A stretch of 64,000 bases of DNA from Candidatus Aenigmatarchaeota archaeon (GTDB lineage: Archaea; Aenigmatarchaeota; Aenigmatarchaeia; JACPZZ01), in assembly GCA_043801595.1 (NCBI GenBank), contig JAZDLW010000021.1:89128-153127 (forward strand), given 5' to 3'. Under the pieces are notes generated by a model. It saw only the letters and a program-made list of their open reading frames with translations, made no database searches and was not told the DNA's origin. This document shows, one piece after another, positions 3,002 to 13,882 of this stretch (positions are counted from its first letter, which is position 1; each line of letters opens with the position of its first letter). The translations under genes were made by a program, and so were the position numbers.

Positions 3002-3661
3002 ATGATAGACTTCAACAAGATGGTAACCAACCATATTGAACGAGAGCATCGTCCGAAACAGATCGGACGGTATTATCCGTCAGAAGTCGGCGGCTGCTTG
3101 AGAAAAACGTGGTATTCTTACAAGTATCCCAAGCAAGTTGATCCAGAATTAATGAAAATATTCGAACTCGGCAACATAATGCACGGTTTCGTCGTAGAGG
3201 TTTTAAAAAGCGAGAAGAATCAAGAGGTTGAACTGCTAAAATCCGAATTCCCGCTTAAAATCGAGGAAAAAGACTTCACGATCTCTGGGCGAGTAGACGA
3301 TCTGATACTCGTCAAAGCCAGCGGAAAGAACGTTTTAGTCGAGGTAAAATCGACAAAAGACATCAAATTCGTCAAAAAAGCGCAGCCGAGCCATGAGATG
3401 CAACTGGTTTTCTACATGCACGCGTCGGGCGTACATAACGGTGTTATTCTCTATGTAGACAAATCGAACCTTCAAAGCAAGACGTTTGAAGTCCCGTACA
3501 CAAAGGAGAAGGCGGATGAAATTTTAGATAGATTCAAGCTGTTGAACGATTCTTTAGTTAACAATAACATGCCCGAGGCAGAAGCGACCAAAACCAAGGA
3601 AACAACGTGGATGTGCAAGTACTGCGAATACGCGGATAAATGCAAGAAAGGGGAAGGATAA
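3002..3661 (+). CDS. Cas4-like / DUF83 PD-(D/E)XK nuclease with a 4Fe-4S cysteine set (standalone, no CRISPR array)
   Basis: N-terminal CLRKTWY (compare Cas4 CPRKxWY). RecB motifs RVDDL...VEVKSTK and QLVFYMH. C-terminal C-x2-C-x5-C (CKYCEYADKC). Confidence 0.75.
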   Translation: MIDFNKMVTNHIEREHRPKQIGRYYPSEVGGCLRKTWYSYKYPKQVDPELMKIFELGNIMHGFVVEVLKSEKNQEVELLKSEFPLKIEEKDFTISGRVDDLILVKASGKNVLVEVKSTKDIKFVKKAQPSHEMQLVFYMHASGVHNGVILYVDKSNLQSKTFEVPYTKEKADEILDRFKLLNDSLVNNNMPEAEATKTKETTWMCKYCEYADKCKKGEG

Positions 3662-3748
3662 AGAAGGCGGGGATGTTTAGGGATTTGTATATAAACTAAA
3701 ATTGGTTGATGCGTACAAGTTTTTATACGATTTAAATTAACAATAATT

Positions 3749-6700
3749 ATGGATTTGTTTGTAAAAGATGTAATTGATAGGTTTAGTCAAGGTTTAACAT
3801 TAGACGGTGAGAAGCGTATTTTTGAAGATGGGAAGGAATTATCTTCCGATTTTCTAAAAGAACGTGCTAAACCAGAATCCTATACAATAGAACTAATTAT
3901 ACGAAAAATATTCGATAAATTAGAAGTAGATATATTACCAGAAAAACAAATAGAAGTTTTGGATTTGGAACTAAATGAAAAATTACGAAATGTTGATTTC
4001 AGAATAAAGTCTAAAAATCTAAAAATTTTAGTAGAAGCAAAGCCTGTAAATTCCGATCTAAAAACCGATTCTTCTTCAGGCGCTGTAAATCAAATAAAAG
4101 GGTTATTCAAAATGACAGAAGTTAGCAATAATTACGATTTTGGAATAGCGACAGATGGATTGAAATGGATATTCATAGATAATTCTGGAAAGAAAACGGA
4201 AGAGATTGATATACGAGATAGTTTCGATAGACTAAAAGAGTTAATTTTAGGAAAAGAAAAAGTTATTTCAAGAGAAACCGAAGAAGAAATTTCTAAAAAA
4301 TTTTATGATTGGTACAATGCGTTGTTACATGGAGGTAAATACAAGAATCATCTAAACATAACAAAAAATATCTCAAAAAAATATTGTTTGGTAGAGAATA
4401 TTTTATCTGCGCCAATTGTGGAGGAAAGAGAACAAATTGCGCAGACAATAATGGATCGTTTGATTTTCATAAAATTTTTACAGTCGAAGGGTATAATAAA
4501 CTTTGATGTGTTAAACTATTTGTCGAACTTAGAAGAAAAGAGTCTTAATGATACGTTAAGACAATTGTTTTTCAACGTCCTTAACACCGAAAAAGGAAAA
4601 CGTGAAGAAATAGATCATAAATTGAATAATATACCATATCTTAATGGAAGTTTATTTGTAAGAACCGAAGAAGAGCTTAAAAATCCTGATTATAGGATAA
4701 GGGCTTATATATTAAAAGAAATTATAACGTTTTTAGATTCATTCAAGTTTATACACGTTGAACGATTATCAAACCAGAAAACTTTGGATCCCGAGATTCT
4801 AGGTTACATATTCGAGCAAGCGATGACAGCTTCCGATCGGCACGGAACGGGAGCTTATTATACTTCAAAAGAAATAACCAATTACATATCACAAAATACA
4901 ATTTATCCGATAATAGTTAAACGTGCAAATGAATATTTAAGAAAAATAGGGTACAAAGAAGGAGAGTTAATAAAAACTATAGATGACTTGTTCGATAAAA
5001 TTAATCCTCCGTCAATAAAGAACATAATGACTGAGGTCGTATATAATTTAAAAGTATGCGATAATTCTTGTGGTTCTGGTGCATTTTTACTTGCTGTTGG
5101 AGAAATTCTGTTTAATTTGTGGAAACGGGCTAAGGAAATAGTAAATCTTCCGATGCCTGATTATTGGTTCAAGAAAGAAATTATTAAAAATTGTATTTAT
5201 GGTGTTGATAAAAACCCAAATGCGATAGAAATAGCAAAATTGAGGTTGTGGTTGTGGATAGTTGATTCGTATAGTCCGGAAAAATTTGAGCCGTTACCGA
5301 ATATAGAATATAACGTGCGTTGTGGAAACAGCCTGATTGGTTATATTAGCATAGAAAAATTTGAGCAGAATAAGACAGATCTTAACGATTATGGAGATAC
5401 TTTAACTGAAAGATCTTTGTATAAAACATTGGCGCGAAGAGCGGATTTAATAAGAAGATATAAGTCGTTATCAGGCGATGGTGCAAAGTTATTGAAAAGC
5501 GAGTTAAATCGTATAGATGATGGTATTAAACGACTTCTAGATAATAAACTATTTCTAGAAATTCAAAAGGAAATCAAAAATGTGAAGTTCGAAGACATTA
5601 GAAGACTCAGAGCATTTCACTGGGGATTTGAATTTGGAAATGTTTTTAAAGATAACAACTCTGAGAGAGGTTTCGATGCAATGGTAGGTAATCCACCATA
5701 CCTAGAATCCAGAAGTCCTCAATTTACAGATGAAATGAAGGATATGATACAATACAGTGTTAAAAAAGAATTTCCTGAGGAAAACAATCTGATTGGAAGA
5801 GGTTGTGATTTGCTTGTATATTTTTATATTAGAGGATTAAGCATAATTAAAAGCGATGGATTTATATCGTTCATCACACAAAATTCATGGCTAGATACTG
5901 ATTATGGAAAGATGTTTCAACGCTTCATTTCTAATAACACCAATGTTAAGGCTATTGTTGATAGCGATTTCAAATATTTCAGTAATGCCAATATCAATAC
6001 AGTAGTAACATTTTTTGTAGGTAATAAAAAGTGTGTGGACAGTAAAAATAAAACTTTATTTTTAAATTACCACATTCGATTTGGAGAAATTAATTATATG
6101 CTACCTGTTATTTCTGACGATATGGAACAACCAAAAAAAATATCCATAAAAATCTTTGATCAATCTGAATTGAAAAATACCGAATTTAAGTGGGGACTTT
6201 TGCTTTTTTCAGATAATAGATTTTTAGAGATTTTGAGTATAATGAATAAGAAAGGTAAGAAATTGGATGATTTAGGATATGGTTGTGGTCAGGGACTTAA
6301 CATAACTAAGGATCACTTAATTGATATGAATAAAATGAAAGAATTGGGTATAAATTCGAAATCAATGGTTCCAATAATGTCATCAGAAGATGGTGCACCT
6401 TACAATCTTTCCAAGACACAATTTTATTTAATAAATAAAGATAAGTTAAGTTCTGATAAACTGCAACAAATTAAAAATCAAAGTATAAAAATTTTAGATA
6501 AAATTTATTCAACAAGATTGCGACCAAACCTCATACTTCCAAGAGGAATAGGCAGGCATTTCTGTTGTATGAACGAAGTAAATGCATTTACTACGAGTAT
6601 GGTAGAAATATATGTTAAGTCAAACGATTATGATAAATCTGTAAGATTATGGACTTTTTTAAATTCTTCTTTATTATGGTTGCTGAGGGAGATCTCTGGA

Positions 6701-6988
6701 AGAAAGAATCTTGGTGGAGGAATGTTGAAGGCAGAAGCTACGGATTTAAAGAATTTTGAGTTGTATTTTGATTTAGATGTTAAGAAATGCAAAGAAATTT
6801 ATAGTATGACGATGGGGAAAGAAGCCGAGCCAGCATTATTGGAGATTGGCACAACGGCACACAAGATGATCGATAAAATGGTTTTTGATTATTTAGGTTT
6901 AAATAACAATCAGCGAAGTTATGTAATTGAAAAATTAAAAGATGTCGTAACTAGAAGAGAAAGAAGATCCTCGAAGGTAAGTGTTTAG
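3749..6988 (+). CDS. Type IIG restriction-modification fusion enzyme (N-terminal PD-(D/E)XK endonuclease plus gamma-class N6-adenine methyltransferase plus C-terminal TRD)
   Basis: The N-terminus carries D..x13..E-A-K (VDFRI...ILVEAKP). Methyltransferase motif I is VCDNSCGSGAFLLAVG and motif IV is NPPY (MVGNPPYLE). The 1,079-aa size and architecture resemble MmeI/Eco57I-type enzymes. The coding sequence is very AT-rich. Confidence 0.7.
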   Translation: MDLFVKDVIDRFSQGLTLDGEKRIFEDGKELSSDFLKERAKPESYTIELIIRKIFDKLEVDILPEKQIEVLDLELNEKLRNVDFRIKSKNLKILVEAKPVNSDLKTDSSSGAVNQIKGLFKMTEVSNNYDFGIATDGLKWIFIDNSGKKTEEIDIRDSFDRLKELILGKEKVISRETEEEISKKFYDWYNALLHGGKYKNHLNITKNISKKYCLVENILSAPIVEEREQIAQTIMDRLIFIKFLQSKGIINFDVLNYLSNLEEKSLNDTLRQLFFNVLNTEKGKREEIDHKLNNIPYLNGSLFVRTEEELKNPDYRIRAYILKEIITFLDSFKFIHVERLSNQKTLDPEILGYIFEQAMTASDRHGTGAYYTSKEITNYISQNTIYPIIVKRANEYLRKIGYKEGELIKTIDDLFDKINPPSIKNIMTEVVYNLKVCDNSCGSGAFLLAVGEILFNLWKRAKEIVNLPMPDYWFKKEIIKNCIYGVDKNPNAIEIAKLRLWLWIVDSYSPEKFEPLPNIEYNVRCGNSLIGYISIEKFEQNKTDLNDYGDTLTERSLYKTLARRADLIRRYKSLSGDGAKLLKSELNRIDDGIKRLLDNKLFLEIQKEIKNVKFEDIRRLRAFHWGFEFGNVFKDNNSERGFDAMVGNPPYLESRSPQFTDEMKDMIQYSVKKEFPEENNLIGRGCDLLVYFYIRGLSIIKSDGFISFITQNSWLDTDYGKMFQRFISNNTNVKAIVDSDFKYFSNANINTVVTFFVGNKKCVDSKNKTLFLNYHIRFGEINYMLPVISDDMEQPKKISIKIFDQSELKNTEFKWGLLLFSDNRFLEILSIMNKKGKKLDDLGYGCGQGLNITKDHLIDMNKMKELGINSKSMVPIMSSEDGAPYNLSKTQFYLINKDKLSSDKLQQIKNQSIKILDKIYSTRLRPNLILPRGIGRHFCCMNEVNAFTTSMVEIYVKSNDYDKSVRLWTFLNSSLLWLLREISGRKNLGGGMLKAEATDLKNFELYFDLDVKKCKEIYSMTMGKEAEPALLEIGTTAHKMIDKMVFDYLGLNNNQRSYVIEKLKDVVTRRERRSSKVSV

Positions 6989-7031
6989 ATATAATCTTCT
7001 CAATAATTTATCAATTTAAAATTTAATTTAG

Positions 7032-7337
7032 GTGAATTTGATGGATACTATAAGGGTCTCATGCCCCTTTTGCAATAAAGAAATATCAGTTTACTATAAA
7101 CCATCAATCTTTCAGGCTGATAAATCACATAGTGCCGCCGCCGGAACCAAAACCTCCTTTTTCAAAACCAAAGAAAAATACGAAGTCCTTGAAGATTGCC
7201 CTAATTGTCATAAATCTAAGAAAGAAATCCAGAAAGCTCTTGAACAAGGCGTTTCTAAACCCAAATCCAAGGAAGAACTGAAAAGGCAACTTGAGGAGTT
7301 GGGATTGATGAAAAAATTTGGCGGAGAAACTGAATAA
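7032..7337 (+). CDS. Small Zn-ribbon protein; looks like a truncated paralog of the 7964 gene
   Basis: Has CPFC...CPNC. The N-terminus (SCPFCNKEISVYYKP) matches the 7964 protein (VCPECHSV...YYKP). The C-terminal tail (KRQLEELGLMKKF) matches out-of-frame sequence 3' of the 7964 stop. Confidence 0.5.
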   Translation: MNLMDTIRVSCPFCNKEISVYYKPSIFQADKSHSAAAGTKTSFFKTKEKYEVLEDCPNCHKSKKEIQKALEQGVSKPKSKEELKRQLEELGLMKKFGGETE

Positions 7338-7472
7338 TATAAAAAACTAAGGATATAGTCAAATTAAAAATATTTTAAATTTACCTAGCAAGCTATCACA
7401 CTGTTCCTAAACAGTGCCCGTTAAAGCCGTAATAAAACAGACTATTTATGTGAGCATAGCCACATTTTTGAT

Positions 7473-7967
7473 ATGACCGTTCAAAAAGACGCGCTTTTGC
7501 TTCTTGCAGCCCTTAAGAAAGACCATAAAATATGGGCAATTTCACCATGCGGTCACGAATACCGCCTTTCTGACAGTGAACTATTTTATGGGTCAGAACT
7601 TACTCCAAAAGCAAAAGAGTTTTTAGACTTGCAAAATGAAGGAATCAAGCAATTGAAAAAAGAAGCCAAAGATTTCAAATACAAACTAACAGAAGGTTTT
7701 ACAAAAAAGAGCGTTGAAGTCAAGATAGGGAAGACAATAGAAAAGATTGTTCCTGTTCTGCCAGGATTTCCATACAATCCTTTGGATTGCAGGTCGCTTT
7801 TTGACCCCATCGACTATACAGTGTTTGTTGGTGCATCCAAAGATTCTGTATCTCACATAGATTTTGTTGATATCAAAACAGGTAATGCCAGATTGAGTCC
7901 TGTCCAAAAAACTATACGTGATGTAGTTTTGGATGGCAAAGTCAATATTAGAGTAGTGAACAGATGA
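7473..7967 (+). CDS. Uncharacterised protein, paralog of the 7964 gene (N-terminal Cys/His motif, coiled coil, C-terminal PD-(D/E)XK-like core)
   Basis: Shares SPCGHEYRLSD / CPECHSVNRLSD, RxxFDP(I/V)(D/E)(Y/F)xVF and (D/E)xK (DIK / ENK) with the next ORF. Its stop overlaps the next start by 4 nt. Confidence 0.55.
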   Translation: MTVQKDALLLLAALKKDHKIWAISPCGHEYRLSDSELFYGSELTPKAKEFLDLQNEGIKQLKKEAKDFKYKLTEGFTKKSVEVKIGKTIEKIVPVLPGFPYNPLDCRSLFDPIDYTVFVGASKDSVSHIDFVDIKTGNARLSPVQKTIRDVVLDGKVNIRVVNR

Positions 7968-8479
7968 ATGACTTTCTCCTCTTTTTGCATGAAAACAGAC
8001 ATATTTTTAGTGTATGCCCCGAATGTCACTCTGTTAACCGTTTAAGTGATTTGCAACTTTCCGAAAAAGGATATTACAAGCCAGATTGGCTTGATGGATT
8101 GCAAGTAGAACAACAACGACTAGGAGACAAAATCGCCAAACTTGATGAAAAGAAGAAAGATCTTCAAAGAGTTGCAAAAGAGAAGGCAGAACGAATCGAA
8201 TTGCCAAAGGTACTCAATCGTCTAGCTCCGTTTTTTACAAAACATAAAATTGATCCAAGAGATGTTAGAACCATATTTGACCCAGTAGAGTTCCTAGTCT
8301 TCCAAGGGATGAATTCTCCAGAAGGCGTTGATAGTGTCACACTCCTGCATCTTGGCGAGAATAAACACCTAATCAAATCGATTGAAGACACAATTGCCAA
8401 AAAAGATTTTGGATGGAACACCATTCAAGTTAAAGATGATGGAAGCGTCAGTGAAGACCCACTTAAAATCAAGATTTGA
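7964..8479 (+). CDS. Uncharacterised protein, paralog of the 7473 gene; its C-terminal tail appears frameshifted
   Basis: See 7473. Sequence 8467-8520 in the +2 frame encodes LKKQLEELGLTERFESK, homologous to the C-terminus of the 7032 protein. Confidence 0.55.
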   Translation: MNDFLLFLHENRHIFSVCPECHSVNRLSDLQLSEKGYYKPDWLDGLQVEQQRLGDKIAKLDEKKKDLQRVAKEKAERIELPKVLNRLAPFFTKHKIDPRDVRTIFDPVEFLVFQGMNSPEGVDSVTLLHLGENKHLIKSIEDTIAKKDFGWNTIQVKDDGSVSEDPLKIKI

Positions 8480-8586
8480 AGAAGCAGTTGGAAGAACTGG
8501 GGTTGACGGAACGGTTTGAAAGTAAGTAGAAAGTATAATTTATGATTTATTATATTTATTATAAAATGCACAAATATGATTCGCGA

Positions 8587-9054
8587 TTAATTGAATAAAT
8601 TAGATCTTATAATTTTGTCCCTAGTAGCTACTATTTGCTGCTCATCGTACCAAGGTTTCAAAGATTTTACAATGCCGATTAAACTGTCGTCAGAAAGAGG
8701 GATCGACCTATCTGTGTGCAAAAACAGTATAGAGCCAAACAGTTCTACTTTACTAGGATCTGAAACCTCACTGGAAAAATAATCTTTAATCTTATCGATT
8801 TTTTCTTTATCTTGATCTGAAAAATTATATTCTTGAGGCTGCTTATTACCTTGATAAAATCCGAAAGCATCCTTCGCCAATGAGGATGAATAAGGACCTC
8901 TTAAATGCCAATCAAAATCGTATCCTAGCTTTATACCAGCACTCTGCAAAATACAGGTCAATTTTTGTATAGTTAACCTGTCATCATAATTGTTTATATT
9001 GAATGACCTACTAGCTATATCCTCCAACGCATGGAAAAGATCCATTGAGATCAT
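8587..9054 (-). CDS. Panacea-domain (DUF4065, SocA/PanA-like) protein; candidate antitoxin or defence-associated partner
   Basis: LTIQKLTCILQSAGIKLGYDFDWHLRGPYSSSLAKDAF fits the DUF4065 signature (QKL...W..GP...L). It is likely co-transcribed with the 9110..9835 gene. Confidence 0.5.
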   Translation of the reverse strand: MISMDLFHALEDIASRSFNINNYDDRLTIQKLTCILQSAGIKLGYDFDWHLRGPYSSSLAKDAFGFYQGNKQPQEYNFSDQDKEKIDKIKDYFSSEVSDPSKVELFGSILFLHTDRSIPLSDDSLIGIVKSLKPWYDEQQIVATRDKIIRSNLFN

Positions 9055-9109
9055 TCTACCTATTTAATAATTATCTGCGCCATATATAAGGGTTTCTAGT
9101 CCACCCTTC

Positions 9110-9835
9110 CTATTCAGTTTTTTGGTACTGGGAGTTCTTTACTATACTATCAATCAGAGCCTCTATCACATCTAGATTTTTATCAATATCTTTTCCTGCA
9201 TTTTTCAAATGGTTAGTTTCTTGACAAAAATCGTAAAGGGCTCTAAGACTTGTCAATAGATCACCGTCATTAAGTACTATGGGCTCTTTTAGAAAATGTT
9301 CTATGGTAAATAACTGGAAATCGGAATTTCTTTCTTTACTCCTCAGAAATCCCACATGCTCAGAAATCGAATTTATCTCATATCTTAGACCAGTAAACAT
9401 ACTTTCCGTTTTTACCTTTTGTTTCCTTTCTTCCAGCTTTTTAGTTTCATCGGCTAATTTTTTAAAAGCCCGTCCTGCACCACGCAAAGCCCAAACCATT
9501 TCACTTAAATCATCTTCTCTAACGAGATCGAGATCAGTGTTATCGAAAATGCGATCGTCTGGAAGTTTAACATCTTTTATAAAATATAATTTGTCATCTT
9601 CATTCGCTTTATCGACCAAAATTTTAATCCCTTTGTACAAAGAATCTGCCTTATCAGATTCGCAGATAACTTTTACTTCGGACTTATCTTTGACATTTTC
9701 TATTCGTGCATTGATACCCAATGATGTTGCGACTTTCTTTATATCCTCTCTTAAATCAGTTCCTTGAACGTCACTTTCTGATTCGCCAACGACTATAATT
9801 TTCTTGTACTCGATCATAGACAAAGATAATTCCAA
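9110..9835 (-). CDS. Uncharacterised 241-aa protein (N-terminal alpha/beta region IIVVGESESD, C-terminal helical region); candidate toxin/effector partner of the Panacea-like gene
   Basis: Unambiguous ORF in the AT-rich island, immediately upstream and same-strand of the DUF4065-like gene. I recognise no family. Confidence 0.5.
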   Translation of the reverse strand: MELSLSMIEYKKIIVVGESESDVQGTDLREDIKKVATSLGINARIENVKDKSEVKVICESDKADSLYKGIKILVDKANEDDKLYFIKDVKLPDDRIFDNTDLDLVREDDLSEMVWALRGAGRAFKKLADETKKLEERKQKVKTESMFTGLRYEINSISEHVGFLRSKERNSDFQLFTIEHFLKEPIVLNDGDLLTSLRALYDFCQETNHLKNAGKDIDKNLDVIEALIDSIVKNSQYQKTE

Positions 9836-9885
9836 TCAAACCCTTAAATAACCTATTTATATCAAAATCCTCTAAACACTACACC

Positions 9886-11160
9886 TCATCCGATCTCCTT
9901 GAATCCCGTATATTTTATTAGGGGCCTCGGAACTTTTATATATCCGTCAGCCGACTGGAAGTTCTCCATTATCGCGACCAATACGCGGTCCGTGACCGCT
10001 GTCGAGTTAAGCGTATGCACGAATGACGATGGCGCAGCGCCTTCCTTCTCGCGCAACTTGATATTCAACCGTCGGGCCTGGTAATCCGTACAATTTGAGC
10101 ATGAAACGATTTCCCGATACTTCTGCTGCACTGGCATCCACGCTTCCACATCGTATTTCTTCGCAGCCACTGTTCCGATATCGCCGGTGCATATGTTTAC
10201 GACGCGGTACGGAATCTTCAGCGACTTTGTGATAGCCTCCGCATTATCAATAAGCTTCTCGTGCCACGCCCATGAATCAACGGGGTCGCAGATAACGATC
10301 TGCTCAACCTTTCCGAATTGATGCACACGAAAGATTCCTTTCGTGTCCTTGCCGTGCGAACCGGCCTCTTTGCGGAAGTTCACGCTGAAACCGGCGTATG
10401 TCAGCGGAAGATTTTCCTTAATTATCGTTTCATCCATGTGCATCGCTGTTAATGGGTGTTCTGAAGTGGCGATCATATGCAGATCCTCGCCTTCAACCTT
10501 GTACAGAACGTCGTTGAAGTCAGCGAGATCGACGACGCCCCTGTACGCATCGGTCTTCATCATGTACGGCGGCAATACGAGAGTGAATTTCTTTTTTGCC
10601 AGAAAGTCTATTGCGTATCTCATCAACGACATTTCCAATAACGCAAGTTTCCCTTTTATGAAATAAAATCTTGCGCCGGATATTTTGGCCGCGCGCTCAA
10701 TGTCTATCATACCGAGTTTTATTCCGAGGTCGATATGATCCTTCGCTTCAAATTTTTGTTGCTTGATGTTTCCCCATTTGCGGACAACGACGTTATCAGC
10801 GTCGCTTGCGCCGACCGGCACGGATTCATGCAGTATGTTTGGAATCCGCATCAGCGCGCCTTGCACTTCTGCCCTGAGTTCGCCGGCCTGCTGATCCAAT
10901 AACCTTATAGATTCTGAGACGCCGACCATTTCCCTGATCTTCGTTTTCGCGTCTGCACCCTTCCTTTTTATTTCCGCTATCTCCGTTGTAACAGTGTTCC
11001 TCTTGTTCTTCAGCGAATCGGCCTGCTGCATTAACTCGCGCAACTTCTGGTCGTTGCGTATTATCTGTTCCAGCAGTTTAAGCTTGTCAGTATCATTGCG
11101 CTTCTTAAGATCATTTCTTATCAAATCAGGATTTTCACGAATCAATCTTATGTCAAGCAT
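9886..11160 (-). CDS. serS: Seryl-tRNA synthetase
   Basis: N-terminal coiled coil (MLDIRLIRENPDLIRNDLKKRN...). Class II motifs FRKEAGSHGKDTKGIFRVHQF and C-terminal GYIKVP. Confidence 0.9.
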   Translation of the reverse strand: MLDIRLIRENPDLIRNDLKKRNDTDKLKLLEQIIRNDQKLRELMQQADSLKNKRNTVTTEIAEIKRKGADAKTKIREMVGVSESIRLLDQQAGELRAEVQGALMRIPNILHESVPVGASDADNVVVRKWGNIKQQKFEAKDHIDLGIKLGMIDIERAAKISGARFYFIKGKLALLEMSLMRYAIDFLAKKKFTLVLPPYMMKTDAYRGVVDLADFNDVLYKVEGEDLHMIATSEHPLTAMHMDETIIKENLPLTYAGFSVNFRKEAGSHGKDTKGIFRVHQFGKVEQIVICDPVDSWAWHEKLIDNAEAITKSLKIPYRVVNICTGDIGTVAAKKYDVEAWMPVQQKYREIVSCSNCTDYQARRLNIKLREKEGAAPSSFVHTLNSTAVTDRVLVAIMENFQSADGYIKVPRPLIKYTGFKEIG

Positions 11161-13676: not shown

Positions 13677-13771
13677 ATGCGGCGGCCGGGATTTGAACCC
13701 GGGTTGTGAGCTTGGAAGGCTCGCGTTTCCTGGACTTAAAAAAGTCTCTTACCAGGCTGGACCACCGCCGC
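13677..13771 (-). tRNA. tRNA, probably Gly (UCC), carrying a roughly 19-22 nt insertion at a non-canonical position between the D-arm and the anticodon stem
   Basis: Acceptor stem GCGGCGG/CCGCCGC. T-arm CCGGG-UUCAAAU-CCCGG. Anticodon hairpin GAGC-CUUCCAA-GCUC. Total length about 95 nt. The 6-nt GUCCAG is directly repeated around the insertion. Confidence 0.55.
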
Positions 13772-13882
13772 AATTTCTGGTTGAAACAGACATTGTCTGT
13801 TTCTATCTGCTTATGCGCCAGCCAGCAACTGCATCCATTTCGATCTATTTACTATCCTTTTCTTTTTAAGAATTGATTGTTT

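Follow-up and report, generated by a model that had tools for sequence, protein, structure and literature searches.

An intact and a degenerate PF10107 gene, a restriction-modification-linked zinc-ribbon gene and a probable gene relic side by side in a low-GC island of an Aenigmatarchaeota genome

Are three small open reading frames (ORFs) that follow one another beside a restriction-modification (RM) gene the decaying copies of a single ancestor, or are they separate genes that share a neighbourhood? The question is raised by a locus in one metagenome-assembled genome of Candidatus Aenigmatarchaeota, from which we analysed a stretch of 64,000 nt (hereafter the window). The genes are ORF1 (7032-7337), ORF2 (7473-7967) and ORF3 (7964-8479), all on the + strand. 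A preliminary description of the window, which placed their starts correctly at 7032, 7473 and 7964, took them for the products of a triplication with a common zinc finger and nuclease core, in which ORF1 had lost the core and ORF3 had lost its tail to a frameshift. We arrive at a different reading, to which we give a probability of about 0.6 as the joint best explanation: the locus would lie in a horizontally acquired low-GC defence island that holds three separate things side by side. These are an operon of two nuclease-family genes (ORF2 and ORF3, here called the A and B subunits), which would be an old and widespread two-gene arrangement and not a local duplication in decay; a zinc-ribbon gene, ORF1, whose family accompanies RM genes; and, directly behind ORF3, what appears to be the 3' end of a second ORF1-family gene.

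Homology between ORF2 and ORF3 is clear (BLASTP E 2e-10, 23% identity over 145 residues), which upholds the earlier proposal of a paralogous pair, and a core of the PD-(D/E)XK type, also proposed, is probable. They do belong to a recognisable family, which had been denied: both exceed the gathering threshold (23.8 bits) of Pfam PF10107 (Endonuc_Holl, the same family as COG4741), ORF2 with 76.2 bits (E 3.3e-21) and ORF3 with 41.1 bits (E 2.1e-10), and NCBI proteins identical to the two are labelled 'Holliday junction resolvase-like protein'. Profile analyses of 2005 and 2012 both placed COG4741 in the PD-(D/E)XK superfamily and described the motif E-(V/I)D-E(V/I)K on a minimal core; the members known at that time also had a transmembrane helix at the N-terminus (PMC1189080, PMC3424549). 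Those bioinformatic surveys of 2005-2012 are all that our literature search returned on the family, with no experimental study of any member among them. The AlphaFold2 models (mean predicted local distance difference test score, pLDDT, 82.6 for ORF2 and 76.8 for ORF3) and the alignments agree that two features already noticed in both proteins, the RxxFDP(I/V)(D/E)xxVF block and a long helix at the centre, are real. ORF2 is predicted to consist of an N-terminal helix, a beta-hairpin knuckle (C26, H28), a helix of ~50 residues and a minimal beta-beta-beta-alpha core. In both models the N-terminus is a short amphipathic helix followed by a beta-hairpin, and on reading the two sequences for a transmembrane helix we found no hydrophobic run of at least 18 residues there. 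The knuckle offers one Cys and one His in ORF2 and one CxxC in ORF3; a full four-Cys zinc ribbon is present in ORF1 only, and not in all three proteins as had been supposed. A search of Protein Data Bank (PDB) sequences with a profile of the A family found nothing.

The two paralogs differ in their active sites. ORF2, the A subunit, has an intact catalytic set (E90, D114 and D133-I-K135) that matches the family motif E...(V/I)D...(D/E)(V/I)K; among 41 of its relatives E90, D114 and K135 are invariant and D133 is nearly so. In ORF3, the B subunit, the residues that align with E, D, D and K are N, E, H and G, and there is an extra C-terminal hairpin (W.T..V.DDG.V). The ENK of ORF3 that had been named as the counterpart of the DIK of ORF2 sits a few residues downstream of the catalytic column and is unconserved in the ten closest ORF3 homologs; the residues that do align with DIK are H-L-G, at a position that varies among ORF3 relatives, and the ORF3 clade has no conserved (D/E)xK. 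Across the loci described below, A-type genes keep the E, D, D/E and K columns in 38-39 of 39 cases, and the columns are intact in solitary PF10107 genes as well (33 of 33), while among 45 loci with a B-type gene E90 survives in 1 and K135 in 9. Judged from its sequence, ORF3 is a PF10107 member by homology and not a predicted enzyme.

This pairing of an intact with a degenerate gene is found far beyond the window. An exhaustive HMMER search with ORF3 returned 260 representatives at E <= 0.001, and a scan of species-representative genomes with a narrow B-type alignment returned 80 loci, which were sorted by hidden Markov models (HMMs) specific to the A and B types. Wherever a full B gene and its upstream sequence were available in that scan (L018-L061), an A gene lay immediately upstream. 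In all, an A gene with an intact E-D-(D/E)xK set stands directly upstream of a degenerate B gene in ~42 genomes from both domains: in Archaea in Thermoplasmata, Bathyarchaeia, Aenigmatarchaeota, Nanoarchaeota, Nitrosopumilaceae, Pacearchaeota, an Asgard archaeon and Methanomassiliicoccales, and in Bacteria in Chitinophagaceae, Ignavibacteriaceae, WOR-3, Nomurabacteria and Polyangia. Homologs of ORF2 and of ORF3 also occur on the same short contigs, and in four metagenome contigs (L004, L008, L009 and L010) they are adjacent and in the same order; PF10107 genes of greater distance (L062-L096) stand alone. Measured from the A stop to the B start, 16 of the 44 loci have a spacing of -4 nt, including the window, where the two genes overlap in an ATGA (7964-7967); the spacing is 0 or -1 nt in 10 loci (26/44 for the three spacings together) and at most 23 nt in 42/44. 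The two genes have also changed together: over 41 loci the pairwise distance matrices of A and B correlate with r 0.94, a value reached in 0 of 2,000 permutations, and mean divergence is 0.605 for A and 0.614 for B. Because of the pairing, the co-variation and the equal divergence, we regard B as a maintained, co-inherited partner and not as a pseudogene, and the decay proposed for ORF3 does not fit a type of gene conserved as a partner in so many genomes and evolving at the same rate as A. No conserved active/dead pairing in PF10107 was found in the literature searched. In one Thermoplasmata locus (L050, 3932-4486) the B-type gene is split over two frames, 3932-4168 and 4172-4486, which may be genuine decay or an assembly error.

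What might such a pair do? Coupled translation would supply A and B in equal amounts, and the two would join through their ~50-residue helices as a coiled coil, giving an asymmetric, Hjc-like dimer with one active site that nicks or cuts a DNA structure on one strand, in contrast to the paired cuts of a resolvase that is a homodimer. B would retain the fold and its long helix; its catalytic glutamate is gone, as in most cases is the lysine, and a C-terminal hairpin has been added. As a speculation, one metal site might be built jointly from the Cys and His of the A knuckle and the CxxC of the B knuckle, each of which makes up half of such a site. An accessory, conflict-related role for the pair we infer more weakly, and we favour it because of the patchy spread across domains, the lack of synteny, the foreign composition and the frequent defence-related or mobile neighbours. 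In its fullest form the proposal is that the A-B operon encodes an unrecognised, widely distributed, asymmetric resolvase-like nuclease, an obligate active/dead PF10107 heterodimer held together by a coiled coil, which would serve as a stand-alone defence or conflict module by cutting branched or replicating foreign DNA on one strand and might have a metal site between its subunits. With so many parts, this remains a tentative proposal that we consider rather unlikely to be right in every particular.

The strongest competing view of the pair's function is that A-B is a housekeeping nuclease of DNA repair or recombination, a junction or flap resolvase whose position in the island is incidental, and we give it a real but minority chance. 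Its relation to the Hjc and YraN-type nucleases (PMC1189080) and the steady purifying selection on both genes agree with such a role, as do the ordinary genes found among many of its neighbours. The 148 genes that flank the pair at ~42 loci include WYL, HNH, SIR2+HerA, transposase, RM and BrxL genes alongside housekeeping genes, and the commonest Pfam family among them occurs only 3 times. The databases are likewise compatible with housekeeping: neither PADLOC nor PHROGs has a model for the pair, and it is rare in viral contigs. PADLOC-DB 2.0.0 models gave only chance-level matches to ORF2 and ORF3 (E 0.0095 and 0.019), and a search of PADLOC, NCBIfam and PHROGs gave no meaningful match for ORF1, ORF2 or ORF3. 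One would not expect of a housekeeping gene, however, that it be scattered patchily over distant phyla, with archaeal and bacterial sequences interleaved by similarity, that it lack conserved synteny, or that it have, as in the window, a foreign composition (G+C content at third codon positions, GC3, of 0.32 for the pair vs 0.55-0.59 for the nearby Cas4 and serS genes) and a place between an RM system and other island genes. We also considered a phage origin of the pair and rejected it, as the pair occurs at only 2 loci among 2.9 million viral contigs.

ORF1 belongs to neither side of this pair. NCBI starts it at the ATG at 7041 (98 aa) and labels it 'hypothetical protein'. It combines a four-Cys zinc ribbon (CPFC...CPNC) with a conserved C-terminal tail, and it has 21 homologs of its own, nearly all from Aenigmarchaeota and ~90-100 aa long. 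Both knuckles are conserved throughout the family (C11-x2-C14 and C56-x2-C59), giving the four ligands of a zinc ribbon, and so is the C-terminus, KPKSKEELKKQLEELGL, which follows the pattern KPKSKEELK(K/R)QLEELGL and reads LKRQLEELGLMKKF in the window. No nuclease domain was found in any homolog and no PF10107 match in ORF1 itself, and with the ORF1-family HMM the scores of ORF2 and ORF3 are at E ~20. Aligning the three proteins upholds the likeness of ORF2 and ORF3 (E 2e-10) and not that of ORF1, whose BLASTP matches to ORF3 (E 0.001) and ORF2 (E 0.08) cover short Lys/Glu-rich stretches only. By these comparisons ORF1 is a separate family and no paralog of ORF2 or ORF3. A Pfam search of the family gave nothing at threshold; the sub-threshold match seen most often, in 5 of 21 members, is to Lar_restr_allev (best E 3.9e-4), and to our reading it mirrors the zinc knuckle only. 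A search of PDB sequences with the family profile found nothing.

In 7 of 7 distinct contexts examined, a small sample, ORF1 adjoins restriction-modification genes, and these are of several kinds: the window, L001, L003 and L013 have type IIG genes, L011 and L098 a methyltransferase with an MvaI/BcnI endonuclease, and L015 two methyltransferases. One comparison is that of the window (3002-6988) with L001 (2632-6008), from another Aenigmatarchaeota genome. The solo-Cas4 protein on one side of the RM gene is 93% identical and ORF1 on the other side 80%, while the RM genes between them are unrelated (34% over 62 aa), and because the flanks are alike and the centre is not, we conclude that the RM cassette has been swapped between conserved flanks. 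Given the differing settings of ORF1 (L011 and L098, L001, L097), we take it to accompany RM modules and to mark a place of frequent cassette exchange. Its position suggests that ORF1 might regulate or assist RM modules of several types in Aenigmarchaeota, and, more tentatively, the family may represent zinc-ribbon regulators of a new kind, common to several RM types in DPANN archaea. We had considered ORF1 as an anchor in the core genome and abandoned the idea, given its island-like GC3 (0.36) and the occurrence of the methyltransferase-endonuclease-ORF1 block in two different chromosomal settings (L011 and L098). L097, which holds a closer relative of ORF1, was likewise dropped as a pre-insertion reference: the ORF1 gene (81% nucleotide identity) is all that it has in common with the window, both flanks are unrelated and no empty site is shown. 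Near other A-B pairs we found no ORF1 relative apart from a marginal match in L058 (E 0.02), and for that reason we take ORF1 and the nuclease pair to be neighbours by circumstance.

The ORF1 loci hold some further points. The MvaI/BcnI-type endonuclease upstream of the ORF1 homolog is intact in L011 (265 aa), is reduced to one 111-aa piece in L098 (4641-4976) and consists of two 111-aa pieces in L099 (1991-2786); in the latter two it may have been inactivated while the methyltransferase and ORF1 persist. L013 (683-2146) and L015 (1-611), which are among the remoter ORF1 settings, have a beta-CASP/metallo-beta-lactamase (RMMBL) gene upstream, with the RM cassette between it and ORF1, which hints that these RMMBL genes are an older conserved frame around a variable RM slot. 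In L011, from an Aenigmarchaeota genome, the gene for the release factor aRF1 (8007-10285, - strand) encodes intein and LAGLIDADG homing-endonuclease domains.

There remains the stretch behind ORF3 that first gave the impression of a damaged triplet. At 8467-8529 on the + strand, in the -1 frame relative to ORF3, the DNA reads NQDLKKQLEELGLTERFESK followed by a stop, and the resemblance of this tail to the end of ORF1, pointed out in the preliminary description, is real. A tblastn search with ORF1 against the window and three further loci finds it at E 0.004 (a second tblastn figure is 5e-4). An ORF1-family HMM built without the window's own sequence and run on 2,897 six-frame segments of the window gives ORF1 at E 3e-46 and the tail as the sole second match (E 0.0087, 13.7 bits); the next segment is at E 2.5. 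The tail is not that of a nuclease. None of ~300 PF10107 proteins has an LEELGL-like tail, and the ten closest homologs of ORF3 end in unrelated, variable tails, which leaves no ancestral tail for ORF3 to have lost by a frameshift. Nor does it look like a recent copy of the neighbouring ORF1. It fits the ORF1-family consensus better than it fits the window's own ORF1, and its ending, -ERFESK, resembles those of the distant members P0141 (-DRFEKKL) and P0136 (-DKFEGKK), while the intact ORF1 ends like its nearest relative, in -KFGG. A hand count over the 14 codons that can be aligned between the two tails gives 27 of 42 identical nucleotides (~64%) and 11 of 14 identical residues, and 8 of the 11 codons for identical residues differ in DNA. 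Because the codons differ while the residues match, we conclude that the two tails diverged within functional genes and do not stem from a recent duplication of DNA. Similarity to the 3' end of ORF1 also seems to reach back at the DNA level to ~8446, across an in-frame TAA (8464-8466), and the last 8-10 codons of ORF3 probably run into the ORF1-type relic. We found no second tail fragment in the other ORF1 loci. The reading that we prefer is that the tail was left by a second, more divergent ORF1-family gene that was truncated when the present arrangement arose, and that it would be the scar of a recombination event that brought the A-B cassette (or an RM-ORF1-A-B block) to this site, with ORF3 now terminating inside the scar.

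Could the tail instead be a living part of ORF3? In this alternative ORF3 is a 188-aa protein with an ORF1-type tail, made by -1 frameshifting or slippage or concealed by a one-base assembly error, and the tail would be a docking peptide by which both ORF1 and ORF3 attach to a common partner, such as the RM enzyme. The keeping of 11/14 residues though 15/42 nt differ is what one expects under protein-level selection; one extra A gives a continuous frame, and only a 10-nt interval (8467-8476) separates the open tail frame from the ORF3 stop. The synonymous differences, however, fit equally well two ORF1-family genes that diverged before one of them was truncated. Moreover, 8459-8479 (CCA CTT AAA ATC AAG ATT TGA) contains no slippery heptamer of the form X XXY YYZ, all relatives of ORF3 lack the tail, other A-B pairs have no ORF1-family gene near them, and the similarity of the DNA appears to extend upstream over an in-frame TAA, all of which makes the longer protein improbable in our view. 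A chance likeness of two helical peptides rich in Lys, Glu and Leu is more improbable again. The segment is indeed short (~17-20 residues) and of low complexity, and the E-values are modest (0.004-0.009). Against chance, it is the best non-self match among the 2,897 segments, with the next 8 bits lower, it lies on the same strand as the intact ORF1 and 1.1 kb from it, its stop falls where the family C-terminus predicts, and even the variable last residues of the family are matched (-RFE-K). A local triplication, finally, in which ORF1 lost a nuclease core and ORF3 its tail, seems to us scarcely credible, for although ORF2 and ORF3 are paralogs, ORF1 and ORF3 have a CPxC motif and a YYKP string in common, and one A added at 8465-8468 joins the tail to ORF3, ORF1 is without significant similarity to ORF2 or ORF3 outside the tail and comes from a family of ~90-100 aa proteins in which there is no nuclease core to lose, the split between ORF2 and ORF3 is ancient and common to Bacteria and Archaea, and the tail is present in no PF10107 protein.

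Several points weigh against our own account, both of the scar and of the pair. The relic is only ~20 codons long, and its E-values of 0.004-0.009 are significant yet not overwhelming. One added A in the run 8465-8468 would fuse it to ORF3, and with one assembly available a once-fused ORF3-tail protein or an assembly error keeps a small chance. The supposed insertion shows no direct repeats, integrase or identical core sequence, and a search of the surroundings of the A-B cassette and of the island for direct or inverted repeats and att-like cores gave short, chance-level repeats only. Because the junction has no integrase, repeat or identical core, we think of illegitimate or partly homologous recombination and not of site-specific integration. 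As to the pair, D114 and D133 are retained in half of the B proteins, some of which may, by their sequence, have residual metal binding or activity. The heterodimer and its cutting of a single strand are deduced from gene order, coupling, co-evolution and the loss of one active site. PADLOC has no model for the pair, for which a defence role is a proposal.

The setting of the three elements is that of a defence-type island beside a type IIG RM gene, as had been recognised. The G+C content of the whole window is ~46%, and its profile shows a low-GC stretch at 3749-9835 (no strand assigned), between a core-like solo-Cas4 gene (3002-3661) and serS (9886-11160). GC3 is 0.26-0.36 in the island genes vs 0.55 in the solo-Cas4-like gene and 0.59 in serS. 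The island consists of the type IIG RM gene (3749-6988; 1,079 aa, with Eco57I/MmeI domains in Pfam and a PADLOC type IIG match at E 4.7e-49), ORF1, the A-B pair, the relic and two minus-strand genes of unknown kind. The first of these two (8587-9054) weakly resembles the middle part of DarG, on its antitoxin side (PADLOC E 6.9e-6, NCBIfam E 1.4e-3), without any match in Pfam, and the second (9110-9835) has weak acylphosphatase-like matches only; together they may be a toxin-antitoxin-like pair. Outside the island, a tRNA-Thr(AGT) call at 13677-13772 (- strand) is 96 nt long, which exceeds the standard tRNA length and suggests an intron-containing archaeal tRNA gene.

For annotation, our account means that the locus should be read neither as a triplet in decay nor as a gene broken by a frameshift. 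Since 2005 PF10107/COG4741 has figured among the predicted nucleases, and the new element here is the conserved operon architecture of an active and a degenerate gene: if a large branch of the family is a translationally coupled pair of this kind in Bacteria and Archaea, there is now a concrete model that can be tested. The RM-linked zinc-ribbon family and its scar are secondary new points, and the short relic, if we read it correctly, is an example of cassette exchange in the defence islands of DPANN archaea, around an anchor gene linked to RM. These findings leave current understanding in place, and each element has partial likenesses among known systems. The order of a complete gene, a cargo and then a 3' fragment of the same kind on the same strand recalls the duplication of 3' ends at attL/attR-type sites; unlike that case, there is here no integrase and no identical core repeat, DNA identity is ~64%, and the fragment lies inside the island and not at its edge. 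ORF1 resembles the Lar restriction-alleviation protein (PF14354) in being a zinc ribbon of ~100 aa beside RM genes, but the matches are sub-threshold and cover the CxxC knuckle only, and the KPKSKEELKKQLEELGL tail has no counterpart in Lar. The controller (C) proteins of RM systems offer a functional analogy to ORF1, but the classical controllers are helix-turn-helix proteins and not zinc ribbons.

For the pair itself the nearest comparison is the family as it was described. ORF2 has the E-(V/I)D-(D/E)(V/I)K motif on a predicted minimal core of four strands and two helices. The COG4741 proteins of that description occur singly and have a transmembrane helix at the N-terminus, and they might be secreted or anchored in a membrane (PMC1189080). 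ORF2 and ORF3 differ from them in having a helix and a Cys knuckle in place of a transmembrane helix, and in forming an obligate A-B pair with a degenerate second member. Hjc and the YraN-type proteins are small dimeric nucleases that act on DNA structure. Superfamily and type of catalytic motif are common to them and the A-B pair (PMC1189080). Hjc, however, works as a homodimer, nicks symmetrically at two places and lacks a long coiled-coil helix, whereas the A-B pair would have one active site. The logic of an active and an inactive paralog is closest, by analogy, to that of XPF-ERCC1, Mus81-Eme1 and the archaeal alpha/beta tRNA-splicing endonuclease. In systems of the XPF-ERCC1 type a nuclease fold is duplicated, one copy is catalytic and the other is kept as a structural or substrate-positioning partner. 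All three of these enzymes belong to families other than PF10107; homology with the A-B pair is claimed only at the level of the PD-(D/E)XK superfamily, and the A-B complex is itself a proposal. Should that proposal hold, the pair would add a case from prokaryotes to the active/inactive-paralog designs of XPF-ERCC1 and Mus81-Eme1.

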